Below, piece by piece: positions 4,037 through 25,172 of a DNA stretch of 64,000 nt; the stretch's first letter is position 1, and the number at the start of each line of letters is the position of its first letter. Under the pieces are notes generated by a model. It ran no database searches. It had not been told where the DNA came from and worked only from the letters and a program-made list of their open reading frames with translations. The stretch is from contig CAYRMI010000005.1 of assembly GCA_964425625.1 (NCBI GenBank), positions 79 to 64,078 of the forward strand, written 5' to 3'. The translations under genes and the position numbers were made by a program. The DNA comes from an uncultured Candidatus Saccharibacteria bacterium. Its GTDB lineage: Bacteria > Patescibacteriota > Minisyncoccia > Phycocordibacterales > UBA918.

Positions 4037-5422
4037 ATGAAAAAAGTAGACTATTTTCAGGGTAAGAAGGTTACCCTCATGCGGGTAGGACTAATCGGAA
4101 GAGGAATTGGTGACGCAGCTTATATCGCAGAAGCTGGTGGGCAGGTGTTGGTAGTTGATGATGCACCACAAAGTGTGATGCAACCGGCCGTGGATGCTTT
4201 GGCCGAATATCCAAACATCACTTTCAAATTTGGTTCGTACGACTTTGTTGACTTCAAAGAGGCAGACTTGGTGGTAGTAGGAGCAGGCGCTCCTCTTGAG
4301 GAACCGGTCCTCCTTAAGTGTAAAGAGGAGGGAGTGCGACTGGTCCAAAGCGCGGCTCTTTTTGCTGAGCTTTCTCGTGTACCTATCATCGGGGTTACTG
4401 GCACGCGTGGTAAGAGCACCGTGACTCATATGATTCACCATGTCCTATCGTTTGCGACGGGGGAGGAAGTACTACTGGGCGGGAATGTGCGTGGAGTTTC
4501 CAATCTCCAACTACTCAATCATGCCCACGAAGATTCTCTCTGTGTCATGGAGCTAGATAGCTGGCAGTTGCAAGGTTTCGGCTGGGCAGGCATCTCGCCC
4601 CAAATTGCAGTTTTTACCAACTTCATGGATGATCATTTAAATTACTATCAGCGCGGAGGTAAGAGTTATGAAGAGGCGATGGATTTATATTTTCAGGACA
4701 AGGCACAGATCTTTCTCAATCAAGATGATAGTGGAGTTTTTATTACCACCCCCGCGGTGTTTGAACGAGCTAAAAAATTGGCTGGCTCACTCGGGCAAGA
4801 AGTGATTTTGGCGGATGCCTCGGTAATTCCCGACGATTGTCTTTTGTCGATGCCGGGCGAACATAACCGCCTCAACGCTGCTTTGGCCTACGAGGCGCTT
4901 AAGGCCACTGGCCTAAGTGATGAAGAGATTTTTGATGGACTGGCTTCGTTCCCGGGTGTGCCCGGACGGTTGCAGTTAGCGGGGGAGAAAGATGGGGTAC
5001 GAATTTATAATGATAACAACGCTACCACCCCGACGGCTACCGCAACCGGTATCAAAGCGGTCGACAATCCGCCAACTAGCGAGAAAAATGTGATTCTGCT
5101 CATGGGTGGGGCGGACAAGGGACTAGATCTTACAGTACTTCTCCAAGCCATAGCTGAGTCAGTTAAAGCGGTGGTGCTATTACCTGGGACTGGGACAGAT
5201 AGATTTAAAGAAGCCTACGCTGCGAATAGTACGGTTAACCGTACTACAATTACAGAGTGCGCCTCGCTCGAGGAAGGAGTAAAGACCGCGCTCGCCTTAG
5301 GCGAGCGCGGTGACGTCCTCCTGTTCTCTCCCGCCTTTGCTTCCTTTGGTATGTTCAAAAACGAGTACGAACGCAACGATGAGTTTATGAGGGTAATTGA
5401 TACCTATGAAGACGGAGAATGA
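4037..5422 (+). CDS. murD: UDP-N-acetylmuramoyl-L-alanine--D-glutamate ligase (MurD).
   Basis: Mur ligase P-loop GVTGTRGKST. HNRLNAALA, YNDNNATT and LMGGADKG motifs, in MurD order. Confidence 0.8.
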   Translation: MKKVDYFQGKKVTLMRVGLIGRGIGDAAYIAEAGGQVLVVDDAPQSVMQPAVDALAEYPNITFKFGSYDFVDFKEADLVVVGAGAPLEEPVLLKCKEEGVRLVQSAALFAELSRVPIIGVTGTRGKSTVTHMIHHVLSFATGEEVLLGGNVRGVSNLQLLNHAHEDSLCVMELDSWQLQGFGWAGISPQIAVFTNFMDDHLNYYQRGGKSYEEAMDLYFQDKAQIFLNQDDSGVFITTPAVFERAKKLAGSLGQEVILADASVIPDDCLLSMPGEHNRLNAALAYEALKATGLSDEEIFDGLASFPGVPGRLQLAGEKDGVRIYNDNNATTPTATATGIKAVDNPPTSEKNVILLMGGADKGLDLTVLLQAIAESVKAVVLLPGTGTDRFKEAYAANSTVNRTTITECASLEEGVKTALALGERGDVLLFSPAFASFGMFKNEYERNDEFMRVIDTYEDGE

Positions 5423-5424
5423 AA

Positions 5425-6199
5425 TTCTGAGTAAGGTTCGACCTTACTCAGAATGCAAGGAGAAAGATTGAGTAAGGTCGAACCTTACTCAAAAATAGTT
5501 TTGGTTATATAATATTAAGAATGAGTATTCGCATTCATTCCATACCTGATGAGTATTACCATATCTATAATCGCGGGGTTGATAAGAGAGTTATCTTTAA
5601 TGATGTGCATGATTACCAGCGTTTTCTCTTACTTTTGTTATTGTCTAATGATGTGTCTCCTACCAATATTAGTCAATCAATACGTGATTATTCAATACCA
5701 GAGTTAATTTTAAAACCACGGACTCCAATCGTTAAAATATCTTCTTTTTCACTACTTCCCAATCATTATCATCTGCTCGTCTCTCCAGTAATCGATAGAG
5801 GGGTGAGTTTGTTTATGCAAAAAGTTGCCACCGGCTATACGATGTACTTTAACATTAAGGAGGAACGTACAGGTTCTTTGTTTCAGGGGAAATACAAAAT
5901 AAAACATGTGACTGATGACAGGTATCTTAAATACTTATTTGAATATATACACCTTAACCCAATAAGGGAAGAATTTGATACAATACAACCAAGTCAAGTA
6001 AAAACTTTAGTTAGTAAGGCGGAAAGTAATCCTTGGACTAGTTTGTCGGTCTATAGTGGTAGTGAGTCGGGGAGGTTATCTGACGCTGTAATTAATAAGA
6101 CGTTATTTGAAGAATTATTTATTTCCTACCAAAAACACCTACATTCACTTTATGACTGGAAAGCGGATGATTTTGAGTAAGGTCGAACCTTACTCAAAA
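5425..6199 (+). mobile_element. REP-associated tyrosine transposase (RAYT) unit. Two REP-like palindromes lie upstream (5425-5453 and 5468-5492) and one overlaps the stop codon (6171-6199).
   Basis: Three copies of GAGTAAGGT-(T)CGA-ACCTTACTC palindromes bracket the Y1-transposase gene. The unit is inserted between murD and murC. Confidence 0.7.
5521..6180 (+). CDS. IS200/IS605-like Y1 HUH transposase of the RAYT (TnpA-REP) type.
   Basis: YHIYNRG N-terminus, HUH motif PNHYHLLV, GSLFQGKY and YIHLNPIRE. These are the classic RAYT blocks. Confidence 0.75.
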   Translation: MSIRIHSIPDEYYHIYNRGVDKRVIFNDVHDYQRFLLLLLLSNDVSPTNISQSIRDYSIPELILKPRTPIVKISSFSLLPNHYHLLVSPVIDRGVSLFMQKVATGYTMYFNIKEERTGSLFQGKYKIKHVTDDRYLKYLFEYIHLNPIREEFDTIQPSQVKTLVSKAESNPWTSLSVYSGSESGRLSDAVINKTLFEELFISYQKHLHSLYDWKADDFE

Positions 6200-6232: not shown

Positions 6233-7531
6233 ATGAAACTCAGCGATATTAAAAAAATACATTTCATCGGCATTGGGGGGATTGGGATGTCGGCTTTGGC
6301 GCGGTTTTTTTTGCGAGAAAAAAAGACGGTCAGTGGTTCAGATAGAGCTAGCTCACAGATAACCGACGCACTAGAGAAAGAGGGGGTGCAGTTTTTCCCC
6401 GCCCAAGTGAAAGAGAATATCGTCGAAGATATCGATATGGTGGTTTATACCGAAGCGATGGCACATGATCAAGAAGAGATGGTAGCTGCCAAAGCGCTGG
6501 GTGTGCCGATGATGAATTACTTTGAGGCGTTAGGACTGGTGGCCAACGAATACTATTTAATCGCCGTCTCGGGTACCCACGGCAAGACCACTACCACCGC
6601 CATGCTGACGGATGTTTTGGAAGAGGCTGGTCTAGACCCGACGGCTATAATTGGCTCACTGCGCTCCAAGACTGGCAGTAACTTTCGCGGGGGCAAGAGC
6701 AAGTACGCGGTGGTGGAAGCCTGTGAGTACAAGCGAGATTTTTTGCACTTGAGACCAAACGTCTTGGTTATAAATAACCTCGAATTTGAACATGTAGATT
6801 ATTATAAAGACTTGGCGGATGTTCAGGATGCCTTTCATACGATAGCCATGAGTGTGCCAGAAGACGGCTTTATAGTGACTGATTCTAGTAACCCCGCCAT
6901 TGCTCCGGCGCTAGAGGGAGTGGCGGCTAAGGTAATAGACTATCGGAAATTTATTGATCCCACACTCGCTCTACATCTACCCGGTTTTCATAACCGCTTA
7001 AATGCCGCAGCTGCTATGGCGGTAGCTAGTTGCTTGGGGCTAGATACCACAGAGACCAAACAGACGTTAGAAAATTTTGCCGGGACGTGGCGTCGCTTTG
7101 AATACAAAGGGACGTTTGTGAATGAGGGTGGGCGAATCCCGGTTTATGACGATTATGGCCATCATCCCACCGAAATCAAGGCCACTCTAGCCGGAGTAAG
7201 GGAACTTTATCCAAATAGTACTGTGACAGTAGTTTTTCAGTCGCACACCTATACTAGGACACAAGAATTATTTGCTGACTTTGTGACTGCTCTAGCCAAA
7301 GCCGATCAGGTATTTCTTCTACCAATCTACGCTGCGCGCGAGGAAAATCTTTCTGGCGTTAGTAGTGAACAATTAGCCGAAGCCATCCTTAAGACCGGCA
7401 TACCAGCCAAAGTTTTCTTAACTAAAGAAGCAGTCACACTAGCAGTAAAAGAAAATACCACGGCCGGTGGGGTAGTTATCGTGATGGGGGCGGGAGATGT
7501 CACAGAGGTGGCGACCCAGCTTATCTCCTAA
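6233..7531 (+). CDS. murC: UDP-N-acetylmuramate--L-alanine ligase (MurC).
   Basis: HFIGIGGIGMSALARFF N-terminus, SGTHGKTTTT P-loop and HNRLNAAAA. Confidence 0.85.
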   Translation: MKLSDIKKIHFIGIGGIGMSALARFFLREKKTVSGSDRASSQITDALEKEGVQFFPAQVKENIVEDIDMVVYTEAMAHDQEEMVAAKALGVPMMNYFEALGLVANEYYLIAVSGTHGKTTTTAMLTDVLEEAGLDPTAIIGSLRSKTGSNFRGGKSKYAVVEACEYKRDFLHLRPNVLVINNLEFEHVDYYKDLADVQDAFHTIAMSVPEDGFIVTDSSNPAIAPALEGVAAKVIDYRKFIDPTLALHLPGFHNRLNAAAAMAVASCLGLDTTETKQTLENFAGTWRRFEYKGTFVNEGGRIPVYDDYGHHPTEIKATLAGVRELYPNSTVTVVFQSHTYTRTQELFADFVTALAKADQVFLLPIYAAREENLSGVSSEQLAEAILKTGIPAKVFLTKEAVTLAVKENTTAGGVVIVMGAGDVTEVATQLIS

Positions 7532-19634: not shown

Positions 19635-20615
19635 ATGTCAAAGACAATTTTGGTGACGGGCGGGGCGGGGTATATTGGCTCCGCTTGTGTGGCAGAGCTT
19701 CATGAACAGGGTCATAAAGTAGTGGTGTTTGACGACCTCTCCACTGGCCAAAGCACGGTCTTACCCGAGACCGTGCCGGTAGTGGTGGGGGATATTACTG
19801 ACCGCGAAGCTTTACGCCAGGTTTGCCAGCCATACCAGTTTGATACCATCATTCATTGTGCCGCCAAAAAAGCGGTGGGTGAGAGTGAGCTTGATCCGTC
19901 TTTATATTTTTATACTAATGTGGTGGGCTCGCTAAATGTACTCTCGGTGATGGAGGAACTGTCTATACCGCAGATTATTTTTTCTTCTACCGCCGCTGTG
20001 TACGCACCGCCACTTCATACTGAAGCGGTAACCGAGCAGTCGCTCTTGGCACCAGTCAATGTCTATGGCCAGAGCAAGCTTATGGTCGAGCAGATGATAA
20101 GTGACTTTGCTAGACTAGGGAAAATAAAACAGTACACGATTTTCCGCTACTTCAATGTAGCGGGGGACGCTGGCCTCCTATTTCAAGAAAAGAAAGCGCA
20201 AAATGTTTTCCCACTCTTAGCTTCAGCCATTACCTCCGGCCACACCTTCTCTATCTTCGGTGATGATTATGAGACCAAGGACGGGACGGGGGTGCGCGAC
20301 TACATTCACCTTTCCGATATCGTAGAAGCCCACCTAAAGGCGCTAGCGGGGGAGAAAAATGGTACTTTCAATCTTGGGAGTGGCACCGGCTACAGTGTGC
20401 GCGAACTGATTGCTGAATTTGAAGCCGTCTCGGGTCGAAAACTTAAAGCCGAGGTGGCGCCGCACCGCGCCGGCGACCCAGCCTTTTTGGTAGCCGAGTC
20501 TACCCTAGCGAAGCAAAGTCTAAACTGGCAACCAGAAAGCACCTTAAAAGATATGGTAGCAAGTACTTTAGAGGCCTACGCCCCACAGAACGCGCCAAAA
20601 CAGTATAGAGCATGA
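19635..20615 (+). CDS. galE: UDP-glucose 4-epimerase.
   Basis: ILVTGGAGYIGS Rossmann motif, YGQSK catalytic Tyr/Lys, ~326 aa. Confidence 0.8.
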   Translation: MSKTILVTGGAGYIGSACVAELHEQGHKVVVFDDLSTGQSTVLPETVPVVVGDITDREALRQVCQPYQFDTIIHCAAKKAVGESELDPSLYFYTNVVGSLNVLSVMEELSIPQIIFSSTAAVYAPPLHTEAVTEQSLLAPVNVYGQSKLMVEQMISDFARLGKIKQYTIFRYFNVAGDAGLLFQEKKAQNVFPLLASAITSGHTFSIFGDDYETKDGTGVRDYIHLSDIVEAHLKALAGEKNGTFNLGSGTGYSVRELIAEFEAVSGRKLKAEVAPHRAGDPAFLVAESTLAKQSLNWQPESTLKDMVASTLEAYAPQNAPKQYRA

Positions 20616-20730
20616 CTTTTAGTAAATTAACTGTATTTTCCGTCACTCCTCGCGTACTTGCAGATATTGTGTGTTTTGGTATACTAATAACTAAGTCCAT
20701 ACGTTAAGGGATCCGACAGGTGTTAGTGCC

Positions 20731-21252
20731 TTAGGAGCCCTTTTCATTTTTACGTAAATATTCAATGTGAGATTTTTTGTTTAGCAAAAAGTCATAATAT
20801 TCTGAGCCAAGTTTTTTGTACAGAGATGATGCGTATTGTCTATTTGGTAGCAATATTTTAAGAAATCTTTTCTTTTCAATAAGGTATTTAACTACTTTAA
20901 AATAGTCTCCATCTCCGGACACAAGAACAAATTTTTTATCAGCAGACTCTTCAGCAAATTGTCTCATTAATTCAAATACTAAGTCAACATCGACATTGCC
21001 TTTCTTTTTTGAAATAGCATTTTGGTCGTGATCTTTGAAGATAAGAATGTAACCTGCTCTTTGGAATTCTGTATACATTCTTGAATGCTCGGTCTGTAGA
21101 TTACCTATGAATAAATAAATTTCACTACATTGATATTTCTCTTTCAGAAATCGACAGAACTTGTAGTGGTCTACAGTCCAACCATCAGCTTTAGCGCCTA
21201 AATAAAAATTTTGGGAGTCTATGAAAGCGCAATTTTTTAAGTTTTTGTCCAT
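20731..21252 (-). CDS. NYN-domain (LabA-like, PIN-fold) predicted RNase, copy 1.
   Basis: GNVDVDLV and VLVSGDGDY motifs. The C-terminus NEKGS overlaps the conserved hairpin motif. Confidence 0.65.
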   Translation of the reverse strand: MDKNLKNCAFIDSQNFYLGAKADGWTVDHYKFCRFLKEKYQCSEIYLFIGNLQTEHSRMYTEFQRAGYILIFKDHDQNAISKKKGNVDVDLVFELMRQFAEESADKKFVLVSGDGDYFKVVKYLIEKKRFLKILLPNRQYASSLYKKLGSEYYDFLLNKKSHIEYLRKNEKGS

Positions 21253-21286
21253 TTAATATGAATGGTACAATAATTTTTCGATAACT

Positions 21287-21752
21287 AAAAGGGATCTTAA
21301 GGTTGTTAGTGCCTTAGGGACATTTTTCATTTCATGGAGACGTATAACTACCGCATCGTCACTTTCAGTGACAAATCGAGAGCTTTGGCAATCCGGACAA
21401 GTGTCTGCAGGGAAGGATTACCGTCGCCACGTTCCAGGCGAGAGATGACTGGTTGTCGACTACCGATAGCTTCGGCGAGTTCTGTTTGTGACCAACCACG
21501 CTTAGTGCGTTCCTTGATGATAGTTTTAATTACTTCATATTCAGGTCCGAGGGCTTCGTATTCAGATTTTACTAGGGGATTTTTTAGAGTCTTGGCTTTG
21601 AATTGTTTAAAAGAAATAGACATAATTTAAATATAACTTATAAGTTATACTAATGAAAGTTGTTCTTGCCATCTTTACCCGGATAAAAATATTCCTCACC
21701 CTTGCGGGTGAGGTCGCGGGAAAATCCCGAATGTACCTACATGATAGTGTGT
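21287..21752 (-). repeat. ~465-bp repeat copy R1. It contains the hairpin motif, the xre gene and the upstream hairpin CCTCACCC-TTGC-GGGTGAGG.
   Basis: Aligns with 24717-25038. Confidence 0.7.
21348..21623 (-). CDS. XRE-family helix-turn-helix transcriptional regulator (HigA/antitoxin-like).
   Basis: GWSQTELAEAIGSRQPVISRLERG HTH. Confidence 0.7.
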   Translation of the reverse strand: MSISFKQFKAKTLKNPLVKSEYEALGPEYEVIKTIIKERTKRGWSQTELAEAIGSRQPVISRLERGDGNPSLQTLVRIAKALDLSLKVTMR

Positions 21753-21804
21753 GGGACCAAATTAGTCAATAGGAAAGAGTAGAGTCTTATACTCAACAGG
21801 AAGC

Positions 21805-22071
21805 TTGATTGACATATTTTATATTGGTACATATCTATGTTCAAAATTATTACCTTGGTGTATATTAATTGTAATGAGTAATACTAGTTCAAAAATTAGT
21901 GGAGGAAAAATTAGACAAAAAAGAGGAGATACTCTAGTTCGTACAATTGTGAAACAATATAAAGTTGATCTGGGTTATCGTTCCGACACAAAGTTATCTA
22001 CCGTCTTAAAAAAGGAAGGCGCTTCTTCACTGTCAAAACTCATAAAAATGACAGAATCAGCCAAGAAGTAG
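21805..22071 (+). CDS. Small hypothetical protein. It probably starts at the internal Met (MSNTSS...).
   Basis: ORF 10 nt upstream of the next gene. No recognisable family. Confidence 0.3.
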   Translation: MIDIFYIGTYLCSKLLPWCILIVMSNTSSKISGGKIRQKRGDTLVRTIVKQYKVDLGYRSDTKLSTVLKKEGASSLSKLIKMTESAKK

Positions 22072-22080
22072 TAATACTAT

Positions 22081-22563
22081 ATGGCAGGAAATGACTTTGA
22101 TTTTATATCTCCAGTCGCGTTCAGAAAAAATATTATTGAGTCAGTAGAGTTCACTTCTTGGTTGTGGGTTACGGCTCAAAGTATTGAATCAAAATATGTT
22201 GACGACATAAATCGAACTATCATTCTCTATAATATTTCAATTATTGAAGCCCTGCTTCTTTTTAGAGCCAAGAAGAGAAAAATTAAATTTCTGGTTCAAG
22301 AATACAAGAATCCATATAAGCTTCCAGCAGAGTTTAGCAAGGCTAATAAAATAGTTGTATTAGCATTTAGGGAAAGTACACCAAAGTCCGATTCTCAAAT
22401 ATGGCTTAGCGATTTGTTAAAGGAAAAGAGAAATTTTCTCGGTAAAAAACTATATGAACAAATAAAGAACTTCAAGATGTTAGAAATACCCTACATCTCT
22501 CAAAGAGACGTTCCGGACGGTTTACCCTTGAAAAGTCGCAGGAATCTTTTGATTCACTACTAG
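22081..22563 (+). CDS. Hypothetical protein with a C-terminal Rx4H motif (possible HEPN-like).
   Basis: C-terminal SRRNLLIHY. Predicted mostly alpha. Confidence 0.35.
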   Translation: MAGNDFDFISPVAFRKNIIESVEFTSWLWVTAQSIESKYVDDINRTIILYNISIIEALLLFRAKKRKIKFLVQEYKNPYKLPAEFSKANKIVVLAFRESTPKSDSQIWLSDLLKEKRNFLGKKLYEQIKNFKMLEIPYISQRDVPDGLPLKSRRNLLIHY

Positions 22564-22594
22564 CTGTAGTGACCAAAATAAAAAATGACAAGTC

Positions 22595-22918
22595 GTGAGC
22601 AATCATATGAAAACAAAAGCCAGTATTACAATAAAAAATAAGCTATATCCGTACTCACTTGAGAAGACAGCCTCTGGCACTATTCATTTTGTAGCTAAAG
22701 ACGCCGCTATTGATCAAGAGTTTCTGGCTGAAGATCTGGCGGAGATTATTCTTGATTTGCCGAATTTAATTTTGGCTGAACAAGATTATGAGCGAAAACA
22801 GTCAGACGTCATTCGCTTCAGAGTATCTGGAGTAGATAAGGTGCGGATTAAAAAGAAGGCGATTGAGAAAGGGTATGACTCTGTCTCAGGCTACGTGCGT
22901 GATTTGGCGTTGAGCTAA
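22595..22918 (+). CDS. Protein with a C-terminal ribbon-helix-helix (MobC/CopG-like) DNA-binding domain.
   Basis: IRFRVSGVDKVRIKKKAIEKGYDSVSGYVRDLAL matches the RHH pattern. The 3' end is duplicated at 23719-23758. Confidence 0.45.
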   Translation: MSNHMKTKASITIKNKLYPYSLEKTASGTIHFVAKDAAIDQEFLAEDLAEIILDLPNLILAEQDYERKQSDVIRFRVSGVDKVRIKKKAIEKGYDSVSGYVRDLALS

Positions 22919-23063
22919 CTTGTGCCCAAATGGACAGACGATTGATAATTAGCACGTCACTACCTTCAATAACAAATCAAGGGTTTAATCAATTTATTTC
23001 AACCAGAAATACCACTTTCTTGGGACGGTATTTTCTAAAATTTGTTGATATACTTACTGCGAT

Positions 23064-23594
23064 ATGAAGAATAATATCGCATATATAGATGGTCAGAATC
23101 TTTTCATGGGAACCACTAAACGTGAACCCTTTTGGAAAGTTGATTTGTCTAAGTTGCGAGTTTACTTAGAAAGGAAATACAATGTTACTAAGGCGTACTA
23201 CTATCTAGGCTATGTCCAGGATGGGGGTAAGTTTGAATCATTATATGAAGAAATACAAAGCGCGGGTTTCATTCTTGTATTTCGAGAGCATAATTCCGCA
23301 ATGCTTGGTAAAAAGAAGGGCAATGTAGATTCAGATATTATCTTTTCAATTATGAAACGACTGTATCGTAGAGAAGAATTCGATAAAGTCGTATTAGTAT
23401 CGGGTGACGGTGACTATAAAATGTTGGTAGACTTTTTGATTGAAGAGGGTAAATTAGAGAAAGTTTTGTTTCCAAAAAGAAAATACGCATCTTCACTTTA
23501 TAAATCAATTGGAGCAACCTATTACGCTGACTTGTCGGAAGACGATACAAGAAAAAAGATAGCTGTAAATGAAAAGGGGTCCTTAGGTAGTTAG
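23064..23594 (+). CDS. NYN-domain (LabA-like, PIN-fold) predicted RNase, copy 2. A diverged paralogue of 20731..21252.
   Basis: GNVDSDIIF and VLVSGDGDY. Co-linear with copy 1. The C-terminus NEKGS is followed by the same hairpin motif. Confidence 0.65.
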   Translation: MKNNIAYIDGQNLFMGTTKREPFWKVDLSKLRVYLERKYNVTKAYYYLGYVQDGGKFESLYEEIQSAGFILVFREHNSAMLGKKKGNVDSDIIFSIMKRLYRREEFDKVVLVSGDGDYKMLVDFLIEEGKLEKVLFPKRKYASSLYKSIGATYYADLSEDDTRKKIAVNEKGSLGS

Positions 23595-23718
23595 CCGTTC
23601 GGAACCCTTTTCGTCGTGATTTGTTGATTATATCAAGTTCGGGTAATAAATCAAGTTTCTGATACCAAAGTTCAATAATTAATTGCAACACATAAGTAAT
23701 AAGGTCCGGATGAAAAAG

Positions 23719-23758
23719 CTATGACTCTGTTTCAGGCTACGTGCGTGATTTGGCGTTG
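23719..23758 (+). repeat. ~40-bp copy of the 3' end of the RHH gene (22873-22912).
   Basis: CTATGACTCTGT(T/C)TCAGGCTACGTGCGTGATTTGGCGTTG at both places. Confidence 0.7.
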
Positions 23759-23784
23759 CGGTAAGATTTGGATGCAAATACCCT

Positions 23785-23843
23785 AAAGAATATGGTACGA
23801 GAGTACCCTAGAGGCTTATACCCCACAGAATGCGCCAAAATAG
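23785..23843 (+). pseudogene. Degenerate copy of the galE 3' terminus (20547-20603).
   Basis: AAAGA(A/T)ATGGTA...TAGAGGC(C/T)TA(C/T)(G/A)CCCCACAGAA(C/T)GCGCCAAAA(C/T)AG. About 85 percent identity. Confidence 0.65.
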
Positions 23844-23900
23844 CCCCAGAAGAGGCCTTTTAACGAAAAATTAGGTTTGCTACTTGAGGTATAGAAAACA

Positions 23901-24683
23901 CTAATTTACAGCCTGTTTGAGCTTCAACCATAATCGGTAGAGAGAATACTTAAGCCAAGCTTCTATGTACTTGGGGTAGGAGGACTGATGCAGTTTTATA
24001 ATTTTGAGCACCTCTTCAATCAGGGACAGCCTCCTGCTACTTTCACTAATATTATGGACCCGATAGGCGACATGATAGCTTGGTAAATTGGCCAGAGTAC
24101 CAACGGTACCCAGTTGCATAAATAAGTCTAAGTCTTCCGAGAGCGGGAAACGATAACCCGGAATAGTTTTGAGCAAAGCCGTGCGCATAAGGACACTGGA
24201 GTGGGCAAATTGATTGCGTAGGAGGAAATTGTTTCTAATATCTTTGTCGGTTACGTTATAAGTAGTCTGCTTTATCTCTTTACCGGTTTCATTGATGAGA
24301 GTGATAAAAGTACCCACCACCGCACAGTCCGGGTGTTCTTCCATAAAAGTCACTTGCTGTTGGAGTTTATCTTTACTGGTCCAGCTGTCATCACTATCGA
24401 GGACAGCGACAAATTCTCCCGTTGCCTGCGCGAAACTTTCTCTCCGGCGTACCAATAAGCCGAGGTTGGTCGGTTCTTTAATATATTTAATACGTGAGTC
24501 ATTGAAATCGCCAACCACACTAGCAGTGTCATCAGTCGAACCGTCATCAATGATAATCAATTCAAAATTACTATAGGTCTGCGCCAAGACACTAGCTATC
24601 GCCTCACCAATAAAATGCGCTCGGTTGTAGGTGAGCATGAGGATACTGACAAGTGGGGAGGGGGAATTACTTGGCATAGTCAT
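23901..24683 (-). CDS. Family 2 glycosyltransferase (GT-A).
   Basis: VSILMLTYNRAHFIGEAIASVLAQTY...ELIIIDDGSTDDT and a DSDD motif. Confidence 0.8.
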   Translation of the reverse strand: MTMPSNSPSPLVSILMLTYNRAHFIGEAIASVLAQTYSNFELIIIDDGSTDDTASVVGDFNDSRIKYIKEPTNLGLLVRRRESFAQATGEFVAVLDSDDSWTSKDKLQQQVTFMEEHPDCAVVGTFITLINETGKEIKQTTYNVTDKDIRNNFLLRNQFAHSSVLMRTALLKTIPGYRFPLSEDLDLFMQLGTVGTLANLPSYHVAYRVHNISESSRRLSLIEEVLKIIKLHQSSYPKYIEAWLKYSLYRLWLKLKQAVN

Positions 24684-24716
24684 ACTAATATACTACTATA
24701 GAAATGACTTCATACG

Positions 24717-25038
24717 AAAAGGGATCCGAAATGTGTCGGTGCCTTAGGAGCCTTTTTCATTTCTAGCGGATGTATAACTACCGATTTGTCACTTTCAGTG
24801 ACAAATCGAGGGCTTCGTACTCAGATTTTACCAACGGATTTTTTAGAGCCTTGGCTTTGAATTTCTTGAAAGAAGTGGTCATAAGTTAAATATGACTTAT
24901 AAGTTGTATCAACGCAAGTTTTTCGTTGTTGTCTTGGCAACGATAAGTTCTTGGCTTTTTCTTAACTCTGTAAGTAAAAATATTCCCCACCCTGACTGGT
25001 GGGGTCGCGGGAAAATCTCGAATGTACTTACATAATAA
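24717..25038 (-). repeat. Repeat copy R2. Same module as R1, with a ~170-bp internal deletion that reduces the xre gene to a fragment.
   Basis: 24767-24813 matches 21341-21385 and 24814-24892 matches 21553-21623. The hairpin CCCCACCC-TGAC-TGGTGGGG carries compensatory changes. Confidence 0.7.
24767..24910 (-). pseudogene. xre HTH regulator pseudogene with an internal deletion.
   Basis: The N- and C-terminal coding parts of the 21348..21623 homologue are joined. Confidence 0.6.
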
Positions 25039-25172
25039 AGCGTATGATTAAATACGTCCATAGATATAGAGACATGAGGTGTGATAAAATAGTTTTACAA
25101 ACGCCTTCGGGCTTGCCCTCTTGCAAGAGAGGGACAACAAATAAAAGCGTTAGAGACAAGTCTCTAACGCTT

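Follow-up and report, generated by a model that had tools for sequence, protein, structure and literature searches.

Why should a transposase-like gene sit between murD and murC, and how long has it been there? We addressed this question in a 64-kb stretch of contig CAYRMI010000005.1 (GenBank assembly GCA_964425625.1), hereafter the window, in which the murD-murC spacer holds a Y1 nuclease gene of the HUH (histidine-hydrophobic-histidine) type flanked by three short hairpins. A first-pass annotation had read the gene as a RAYT (a tyrosine transposase associated with REP, repetitive extragenic palindromic, elements) whose insertion split a normally contiguous murD-(ftsW)-murC segment. Our data point instead to a REPtron-like module, which we consider the probable explanation: an apparently single-copy, vertically inherited class-2 Y1 HUH gene, kin to RAYT/TnpA-REP and to TIRYT proteins (tyrosine transposases linked to terminal inverted repeats), bracketed by its cognate hairpins. 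The features concerned are as follows.

4037-5422, + strand: murD, the upstream neighbour, with Mur_ligase_M, Mur_ligase_C and MurD-like_N domains
5424-5454: hairpin copy 1, ATTCTGAGTAAGGT-TCG-ACCTTACTCAGAAT, a perfect stem of 14 bp closed by a 3-nt loop, in the opposite orientation to copies 2 and 3
5468-5494: hairpin copy 2, TTGAGTAAGGT-CGA-ACCTTACTCAA, centred 41 nt ahead of the Y1 gene's ATG
5521-6180, + strand: Y1 HUH nuclease gene (class 2, RAYT/TIRYT-like), encoding 219 aa, with conserved Ser174 and Trp213 in the C-terminal tail
5764-5772: the HUH motif of the Y1 protein, H82-Y83-H84
5944-5946: the predicted catalytic tyrosine, Y142, within YIHLNP, with N146 four residues on
6171-6199: hairpin copy 3, TTTTGAGTAAGGT-CGA-ACCTTACTCAAAA, oriented as copy 2 and spanning the TAA stop codon (6178-6180) of the Y1 gene
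6233-7531, + strand: murC, the downstream neighbour, with Mur_ligase catalytic, M and C domains

All three genes lie on the + strand, and the hairpins and the Y1 gene together form a unit of about 775 bp. As the first pass had stated, neither ftsW nor murG lies between murD and murC; the Y1 gene is the only gene there. It is present in one copy, no second Y1 gene being found in the 64 kb of the source genome that make up the window.

The Y1 gene is an old resident of the murD-murC site

The order murD-Y1 gene-murC was found in all six independent loci at least 55% identical to the window protein (the window itself, L002/L003, L006, L008, L010 and L026), with the Y1 proteins of the five relatives being 55-68% identical to that of the window. 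When these loci are compared in pairs, the Y1 proteins are 50-69% identical, the MurD proteins 60-75% and the MurC proteins 56-68%. These similar values indicate that the divergence of the Y1 gene has kept pace with that of the housekeeping genes beside it, and this co-divergence, together with the common site in relatives, shows that the gene is an old resident rather than a recent insertion. The module already occupied the murD-murC site before the split of lineages that now share only 56-75% identity in MurD and MurC. The proposal that an insertion had split murD from murC is not supported. The first-pass annotation had itself named, as evidence against its reading, that relatives would carry the gene at this site in a domesticated, single-copy form, and the synteny agrees with this; vertical, single-copy inheritance is, however, also the normal behaviour of RAYTs (PMC5581495).

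In some relatives the spacer also holds one to three extra genes. These differ between the lineages of L002/L003, L006, L010 and L026 (Cu-oxidase_4, one or two NUDIX genes and others), and the spacer behaves as a variable spot within an otherwise conserved neighbourhood.

The synteny bears directly on the alternative that the unit is an active, autonomous insertion sequence (IS) of the IS200/IS605 type, organised as hairpin-tnpA-hairpin and recently transposed into the murD-murC spacer. The size of ~775 bp and the subterminal hairpins on both sides of the Y1 gene would suit such an element, and more distant family members, at 41-45% identity, occupy unrelated sites (L018 has its copy at uvrD/rsmA, and L020 and L022 have theirs in different contexts), so the unit has moved, though on long time scales only. 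On the other hand, the site is shared by all six close loci with a divergence equal to that of MurD and MurC, there is one copy in 64 kb, and the protein has Y-x3-N-P in place of the Y-x3-Q of IS200 transposases (PMC6006769). Moreover, two diverged family paralogs occur together in 3 of 80 metagenome loci and are 39-49% identical to each other, not near-identical, and so are no IS-like duplicates. A recent IS200-type insertion is excluded by the synteny, and we regard the IS200-type explanation as a whole as very unlikely.

The protein is a class-2 Y1 nuclease with a TnpA fold

The HYHLL, GSLFQGKY and YIHLNP blocks noticed in the first pass are all present in the 219-aa product, as NHYHLLV, GSLFQGKY and YIHLNP. 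The Pfam search proposed at that stage returned Y1_Tnp (PF01797), scoring 27.1 bits where 23 is the cut-off (E = 4.9e-6), as a partial match covering residues 71-144 only. When a clustered protein collection was searched with the window protein, 2,793 matches were obtained, mostly of ~220 aa, and those with names came from metagenome-assembled genomes (MAGs) of Paceibacteria/Paceibacterota or bore the Joint Genome Institute (JGI) name "REP element-mobilizing transposase RayT". The 50%-identity representatives were also scanned exhaustively with HMMER, which returned 14,424 matches at E <= 1e-3, of which 3,775 reached E <= 1e-10 and 132 reached E <= 1e-30. Across 41 aligned homologs with 39-72% identity, Y13, H14, N17, R18, G19, N81, H82 and H84 are invariant, as are Y142, H144, L145, N146 and W213, while P147 of Y142-I-H-L-N146-P147 and S174 are nearly so.

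Because sequence searches of the Protein Data Bank (PDB) were either empty, as with the single window protein, or marginal, as with the family profile, a fold comparison was needed. The AlphaFold2 model of the window protein (mean predicted local distance difference test score, pLDDT, 90.1; predicted template modelling score, pTM, 0.88) has as its best Foldseek match in the PDB 4ER8_A (E = 4.8e-5, target-normalised TM score 0.67), which is E. coli TnpA-REP bound to a REP hairpin; the next fold matches are the TnpA proteins of IS608, ISDra2 and IS200. In the family-profile alignment to 4ER8 (E = 0.062), HFH falls on HMH and YIHLNP on YIYINP. The profile match, the conserved HUH with a single Tyr and the TnpA fold place the protein in the Y1 HUH superfamily.

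In the TnpA-Y1 classification of Quentin et al., Y-x3-N-P defines class 2 (PMC6006769), and the window protein carries this signature and not Y-x3-Q. Subclass 2.1, which corresponds to Bertels Group 1 and to the TIRYTs of Di Nocera et al. (PMC6006769, PMC5581495, PMC3733652), is listed with the motif set NH[YF]H / FQ / Y[IV]HLNP and a Ser-containing C-terminal extension (Table 1, PMC6006769). N81-H-Y-H84, F121-Q122, Y142-IHLNP and S174 of the window protein match this set, and the protein would accordingly fit subclass 2.1, an assignment made from motifs only and not from a tree.

Three identical hairpins bracket the gene in the window

The hairpin shared by the three copies is TGAGTAAGGT-CGA-ACCTTACTCA. 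A search of the window with the pattern GAGTAAGGTNNNACCTTACTC, allowing three mismatches, returned three matches (5429-5449, 5470-5490 and 6175-6195), each with 0 mismatches; the chance expectation is 0.02, and three or more matches occurred in 0 of 100 shuffles. The first pass was thus right that three copies bracket the gene, but its description of them had to be revised. All three consist of a perfect 9-14 bp stem and a loop of 3 nt, rather than being an even palindrome centred on TCGA, and since the loop reads TCG in copy 1 and CGA in copies 2 and 3, copy 1 is the reverse complement of the other two. Neither a further copy with up to 3 mismatches nor the 13-nt core was found elsewhere in the window, so that proliferation in the source genome, which the first pass had proposed to check, is not seen in the remaining ~63 kb.

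Copy 1 starts 2 nt past the murD stop codon and forms with copy 2 an inverted doublet (5424-5494) resembling a REPIN (a REP doublet forming a hairpin). As single-stranded DNA (ssDNA), this doublet can fold into a single 23-bp hairpin (dG -24.6 kcal/mol, z = -8.7), and the ssDNA fold of copy 3 has a dG of -11.8 kcal/mol (z = -7.7). The window has 22 odd-length palindromes with 7 or more pairs, and AGG at positions -5 to -3 from the centre is confined to these three copies. At gathering thresholds, Rfam placed no RNA family at the hairpins, its matches in the window being 16S rRNA and one tRNA.

Copy 2 lies just upstream of a TATAAT (5508-5513) that ends 7 nt before the Y1 ATG. No Shine-Dalgarno sequence lies between this box and the ATG, and similar boxes stand 9 nt before the ATG in L008 and L010. 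The sequence here hints at a leaderless transcript starting after the TATAAT; a simple consensus promoter scan called no sigma-70-type site next to the Y1 ATG and lends this idea no support.

Two other readings of the hairpin sequence were considered and dropped: a likeness of GGTTCGA to the tRNA T-arm, because the stem/loop register does not fit and the apex sequence differs between lineages, and a Shine-Dalgarno role of the AGG box, because the proximal hairpin centre lies a median of ~36 nt before the ATG. Separately, the 3' part of murD contains two perfect palindromes within the last 200 nt of its coding sequence (5227-5246 and 5285-5311). One, TAGTACGGTTAACCGTACTA, falls where MurD has 3 aa more than its orthologs; the other, the 27-nt ACCGCGCTCGCC-TTA-GGCGAGCGCGGT, is without length change in MurD. 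Both are not of the AGG-box type.

Cognate hairpins with an AGG/CCT box accompany the gene family

The relatives at the murD-murC site carry hairpins of the same kind as the window, with compensatory changes.

Window: TGAGTAAGGT-CGA-ACCTTACTCA
L002, murD-murC site: TGAGGAAGGT-CGA-ACCTTCCTCA
L026, murD-murC site: CTGACGGAGGT-TCG-ACCTCCGTCAG
L008, murD-murC site: TGAGGGAGGC-TTA-GCCTCCCTCA
L010, murD-murC site: TGAGGGAGGC-CAG-GCCTCCCTCA

In L006, a 53-nt unit with two inverted hairpins is present on each side of the Y1 gene.

A metagenome scan yielded 80 further family loci, 79 of them usable, in which the 230 nt before the ATG were compared with the stop-codon region and shared words were picked without any palindrome criterion. 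An exact word of at least 12 nt was common to the 5' flank and the 3' end in 73 of the 79 loci (median 19 nt), compared to 12 of 387 permuted pairings (3%). Hairpins of at least 5 bp are contained in 63 of these 73 words, against 6% of shuffled words, and both AGG and CCT in 62, against 7%. Where both sides have a clean hairpin (48 loci), A, G and G occupy positions -5, -4 and -3 from the centre (with C, C and T at +3 to +5) in 48, 47 and 47 loci, respectively, whereas all other stem positions vary freely yet stay paired, the lower stem covarying by lineage.

Placement is also regular. The 5' palindrome precedes the ATG by 11-119 nt, the proximal copy being centred at a median of 36.5 nt, and the centre of the 3' hairpin is a median of 4 nt past the stop codon (48 loci). 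The reading frame of several homologs continues through the 3' hairpin, giving tails such as EGPTFLK and GGLASLK. Upstream and downstream copies are inverted at 23 loci, direct at 12 and both at 8. Two canonical, plasmid-borne subclass-2.1 genes from P. aeruginosa and Sporomusa are accompanied by inverted repeats with GGGGACAG and GGGGTCAG (GGGGWSAS motif), indicating that the AGG-box hairpin is specific to the branch found in the Candidate Phyla Radiation (CPR).

A third cognate hairpin occurs inside the gene, ~170 nt after the ATG, at L022:4175-4189, L027:~8213 and L080:~6687, recalling the intragenic REPs described for TnpA-Y1 subclass 2.4.

Might the palindromes have nothing to do with the protein, being plain terminators at gene ends or repeats that arose by chance? 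Two of the three window copies are terminator-like in a simple scan, and other unique palindromes stand at gene ends in the window. However, three identical copies were found where 0.02 were expected, they are the sole AGG-type members among the 22 palindromes, and lineage-specific, AGG-boxed bracketing recurs in 73 of 79 loci against 3% after permutation. These results exclude chance, and we give this explanation next to no credence.

Hairpin copies are dispersed at low density in relatives

In a collection of species-representative genomes, 7 loci from 3 other MAGs contain the exact window 21-mer, 5 of these loci being well-separated places on two contigs (~482 kb in total) of MAG nzgw456. 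No Y1 homolog was found at the 7 loci, within stretches of at most 8 kb each, and no orthology of these loci to any part of the window was detected. The dispersed hairpins are singlets or inverted doublets and for the most part lie near gene 3' ends. Copies lie on the stop codon of dnaK, on that of a methyltransferase gene, between a small open reading frame and the gene for ribosomal protein S1, at the latter's 3' end, and adjoining a class I tRNA synthetase gene.

Two of the loci, both on JAHFML010000001.1 of MAG nzgw456, resemble insertion products. At 104-112 kb, a 57-nt inverted doublet (L015:1536-1585) lies in frame inside dnaE and encodes NLSKVEPYSNEEGSTLLKL. It falls in the loop between FTVV and IRFGL, which has ~4-8 residues in the closest DnaE relatives (83-84% identical); in-frame REPs in replication genes are known for classical REPs (PMC3733652). 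At 192-200 kb, a DUF4258 + DUF2283 cassette resembling a toxin-antitoxin pair (L012:7092-7730) is bracketed by inverted window hairpins and is also flanked by a 17-nt direct repeat, CCTAAGAATTCACTGCT. This cassette seems to have inserted between the two members of a hairpin doublet.

Around 35 family genes, 6 extra cognate copies with at most 1 mismatch were counted in 317.5 kb. For comparison, flanking 16-mers number ~12 per replicon in Group 1 RAYTs and 57-140 in Groups 2 and 3 (PMC5581495), and the hairpin density in the CPR family is nearer the Group 1 figure.

These positions raise the alternative that the hairpins are cis-regulatory or RNA elements (operators, terminators, insulators or mRNA stabilisers) and the protein a hairpin-binding regulator or ssDNA-processing factor that mobilises nothing. 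The tight placement, with a median of 36.5 nt before the ATG and a 3' copy on the stop codon, is consistent with this, as are the position of copy 2 just upstream of the TATAAT, the dispersed copies at 3' ends of genes, the low copy number and the retention of the gene in very small genomes under housekeeping-like constraint. Nevertheless, the HUH and Tyr residues are invariant and would not be needed for pure DNA binding, and the in-frame dnaE doublet and the two-gene cassette of L012 look like the outcome of insertion. In addition, no T-run follows copy 3 on the coding strand, the promoter scan called no consensus beside the ATG and no Rfam match was found. As a full account we judge this explanation unlikely, though it deserves more weight than an IS200-type element. 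A regulatory or structural role of the hairpins without mobilisation is possible and compatible with the REPtron-like module.

Proposed mechanism

For the REPtron-like module we propose a mechanism modelled on E. coli TnpA-REP and IS608 TnpA. The Y1 protein would bind the hairpin when it forms in ssDNA, e.g. in the lagging-strand template, and would read its AGG/CCT box. Cleavage would take place nearby via Tyr142, with the metal held by H82, H84 and N146, and hairpins or doublets might occasionally be excised and re-inserted in trans. The Y1 gene itself would no longer move.

Several observations weigh against this reading. Hairpin binding, cleavage and mobilisation are inferred by analogy, whereas the data demonstrate the fold, conservation of the catalytic residues, vertical inheritance at murD-murC, the family-wide AGG-box bracketing and the low-level dispersal in relatives. 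The window protein scores 35.2 bits against the RAYT equivalog NF047646 (REP_Tyr_transpos) of NCBIfam, below the cut-off of 80, and the sequence match of the family profile to 4ER8 (E = 0.062) is marginal. No conserved GT[AG]G is present at the hairpin foot, whose positions vary across the 48 loci, and upstream and downstream hairpins are inverted in part of the loci only. Subclass 2.1, whose motifs the window protein fits, had no REP-like structures found (PMC6006769). The 64-kb window contains no hairpin copy away from the Y1 gene, the density in relatives (~1 per 50-100 kb) is far below that of classical REP families, and what the dnaE case shows is the absence of the segment in close relatives. 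The RAYT/REP-like label of the first pass therefore stands only in part: the Pfam match, the motifs, the 4ER8 fold, the cognate bracketing and the dispersal of the 21-mer elsewhere agree with it, whereas the lack of GT[AG]G, the score under the RAYT cut-off and the low copy number do not.

A broader hypothesis, which we put forward tentatively and think doubtful on present data, is that the AGG-box hairpin and the Y1 nuclease constitute an undescribed, Patescibacteria-wide class of REPIN/RAYT-like systems, kept for long periods in streamlined genomes for a service to the host. If so, the service might be the processing of ssDNA hairpins at replication forks or the shaping of gene ends, and the system would not be selfish. 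Recognition would then differ from that of E. coli TnpA-REP, which reads a GTAG foot, in using an apex-near AGG/CCT box together with a lineage-specific lower stem.

Novelty and significance

Long-term vertical inheritance of a transposase-derived gene together with its non-autonomous repeats is exemplified chiefly by RAYT/REPIN systems. To our knowledge, their study has been almost confined to Proteobacteria and Cyanobacteria. A large family following the same logic in CPR bacteria extends it to genomes that rank among the smallest and most streamlined known, and the retention of the gene at a fixed site under housekeeping-like constraint in such genomes argues for a role at the level of the host. 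At the level of the gene, JGI annotations already carry a label (RayT, COG1943), and in the full-text literature on REP/RAYT or IS200 we found no description of the hairpins or of the conserved murD-murC position in CPR/Patescibacteria. The first-pass remark that RAYT/REP systems are mainly proteobacterial is only partly right, since subclasses are also recorded in Cyanobacteria, Bacteroidetes and other phyla (PMC6006769); CPR taxa are not mentioned in that survey. The window gene belongs to a large CPR branch of REP/RAYT-type systems that had apparently not been described before.

A short hairpin with an invariant AGG/CCT box is easily searched for, which would allow systematic repeat annotation in CPR MAGs, and the box also offers a simple in vitro test of hairpin reading by a Y1 nuclease. 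For annotators, a "transposase" at murD-murC is no sign of a recent insertion or of an assembly fault.

Other features of the window

The window opens inside a bacterial 16S rRNA gene (1-1194, model positions 301-1533), which is followed by a tRNA at 2414-2487 and not by a 23S rRNA gene (Rfam). At 20560-25065, several segments of 40-120 nt return every ~3.3 kb and are 80-90% identical (repeat families D1-D4, D8 and D12), which suggests a diverged tandem duplication of a gene block.

Comparison with known systems

The TnpA proteins of IS200/IS605 elements (IS608 and ISDra2; subclass 1.1) share with the window module the HUH/Y1 fold, a unit of ~0.7-0.8 kb and subterminal hairpins on both sides, and ssDNA recognition is known in these systems. 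The window protein differs from them in having Y-x3-N-P instead of Y-x3-Q and in being longer, with a C-terminal domain. Its gene is apparently single-copy and syntenic, not multi-copy and near-identical, and has no tnpB partner.

TIRtrons with their TIRYTs (subclass 2.1) have several features in common with the window module. The key motifs are one of the two sets listed for the subclass, the conserved Ser lies in a C-terminal extension and the length is ~220-240 aa. The flanking repeats are of low copy (Group 1 16-mers, ~12 per replicon) and may overlap the 3' end of the gene. Canonical members, however, have long terminal inverted repeats with GGGGWSAS, unlike the short, self-complementary AGG-box hairpins that flank the window gene, and many 2.1 members carry a distal DnaA_C-like or helix-turn-helix domain that the window protein lacks.

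In organisation, the module resembles REPtrons, i.e. a RAYT/TnpA-REP with its REPs or REPINs, as represented by E. coli YafM (4ER8) and the Pseudomonas RAYTs (subclasses 2.2 and 2.5). The differences are as follows. The CPR family has an invariant AGG/CCT in the upper stem and no GT[AG]G foot, its stems are short (9-14 bp) and perfect, without bulges, and its copies number tens, not hundreds, per genome at best, REP families being marked by dozens to hundreds of dispersed extragenic copies. The window protein has NHYH and FQ in place of the DHLH and WE of RAYTs and falls under the NCBIfam RAYT equivalog cut-off, and its host is a Paceibacteria-type CPR bacterium. In common with REPtrons are the Y1 HUH fold, with 4ER8 as the best structural match, the class-2 Y-x3-N-P signature, and an apparently single, diverged, vertically inherited gene. 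Its own hairpins bracket this gene, often inverted and with REPIN-like inverted doublets, and they are lineage-specific and covary with it. Dispersed copies lie at the 3' ends of genes and sometimes in frame in replication genes, as do REPs (PMC3733652). The best-supported placement of the module is in a distinct, CPR-centred branch of class-2 Y1 nucleases.

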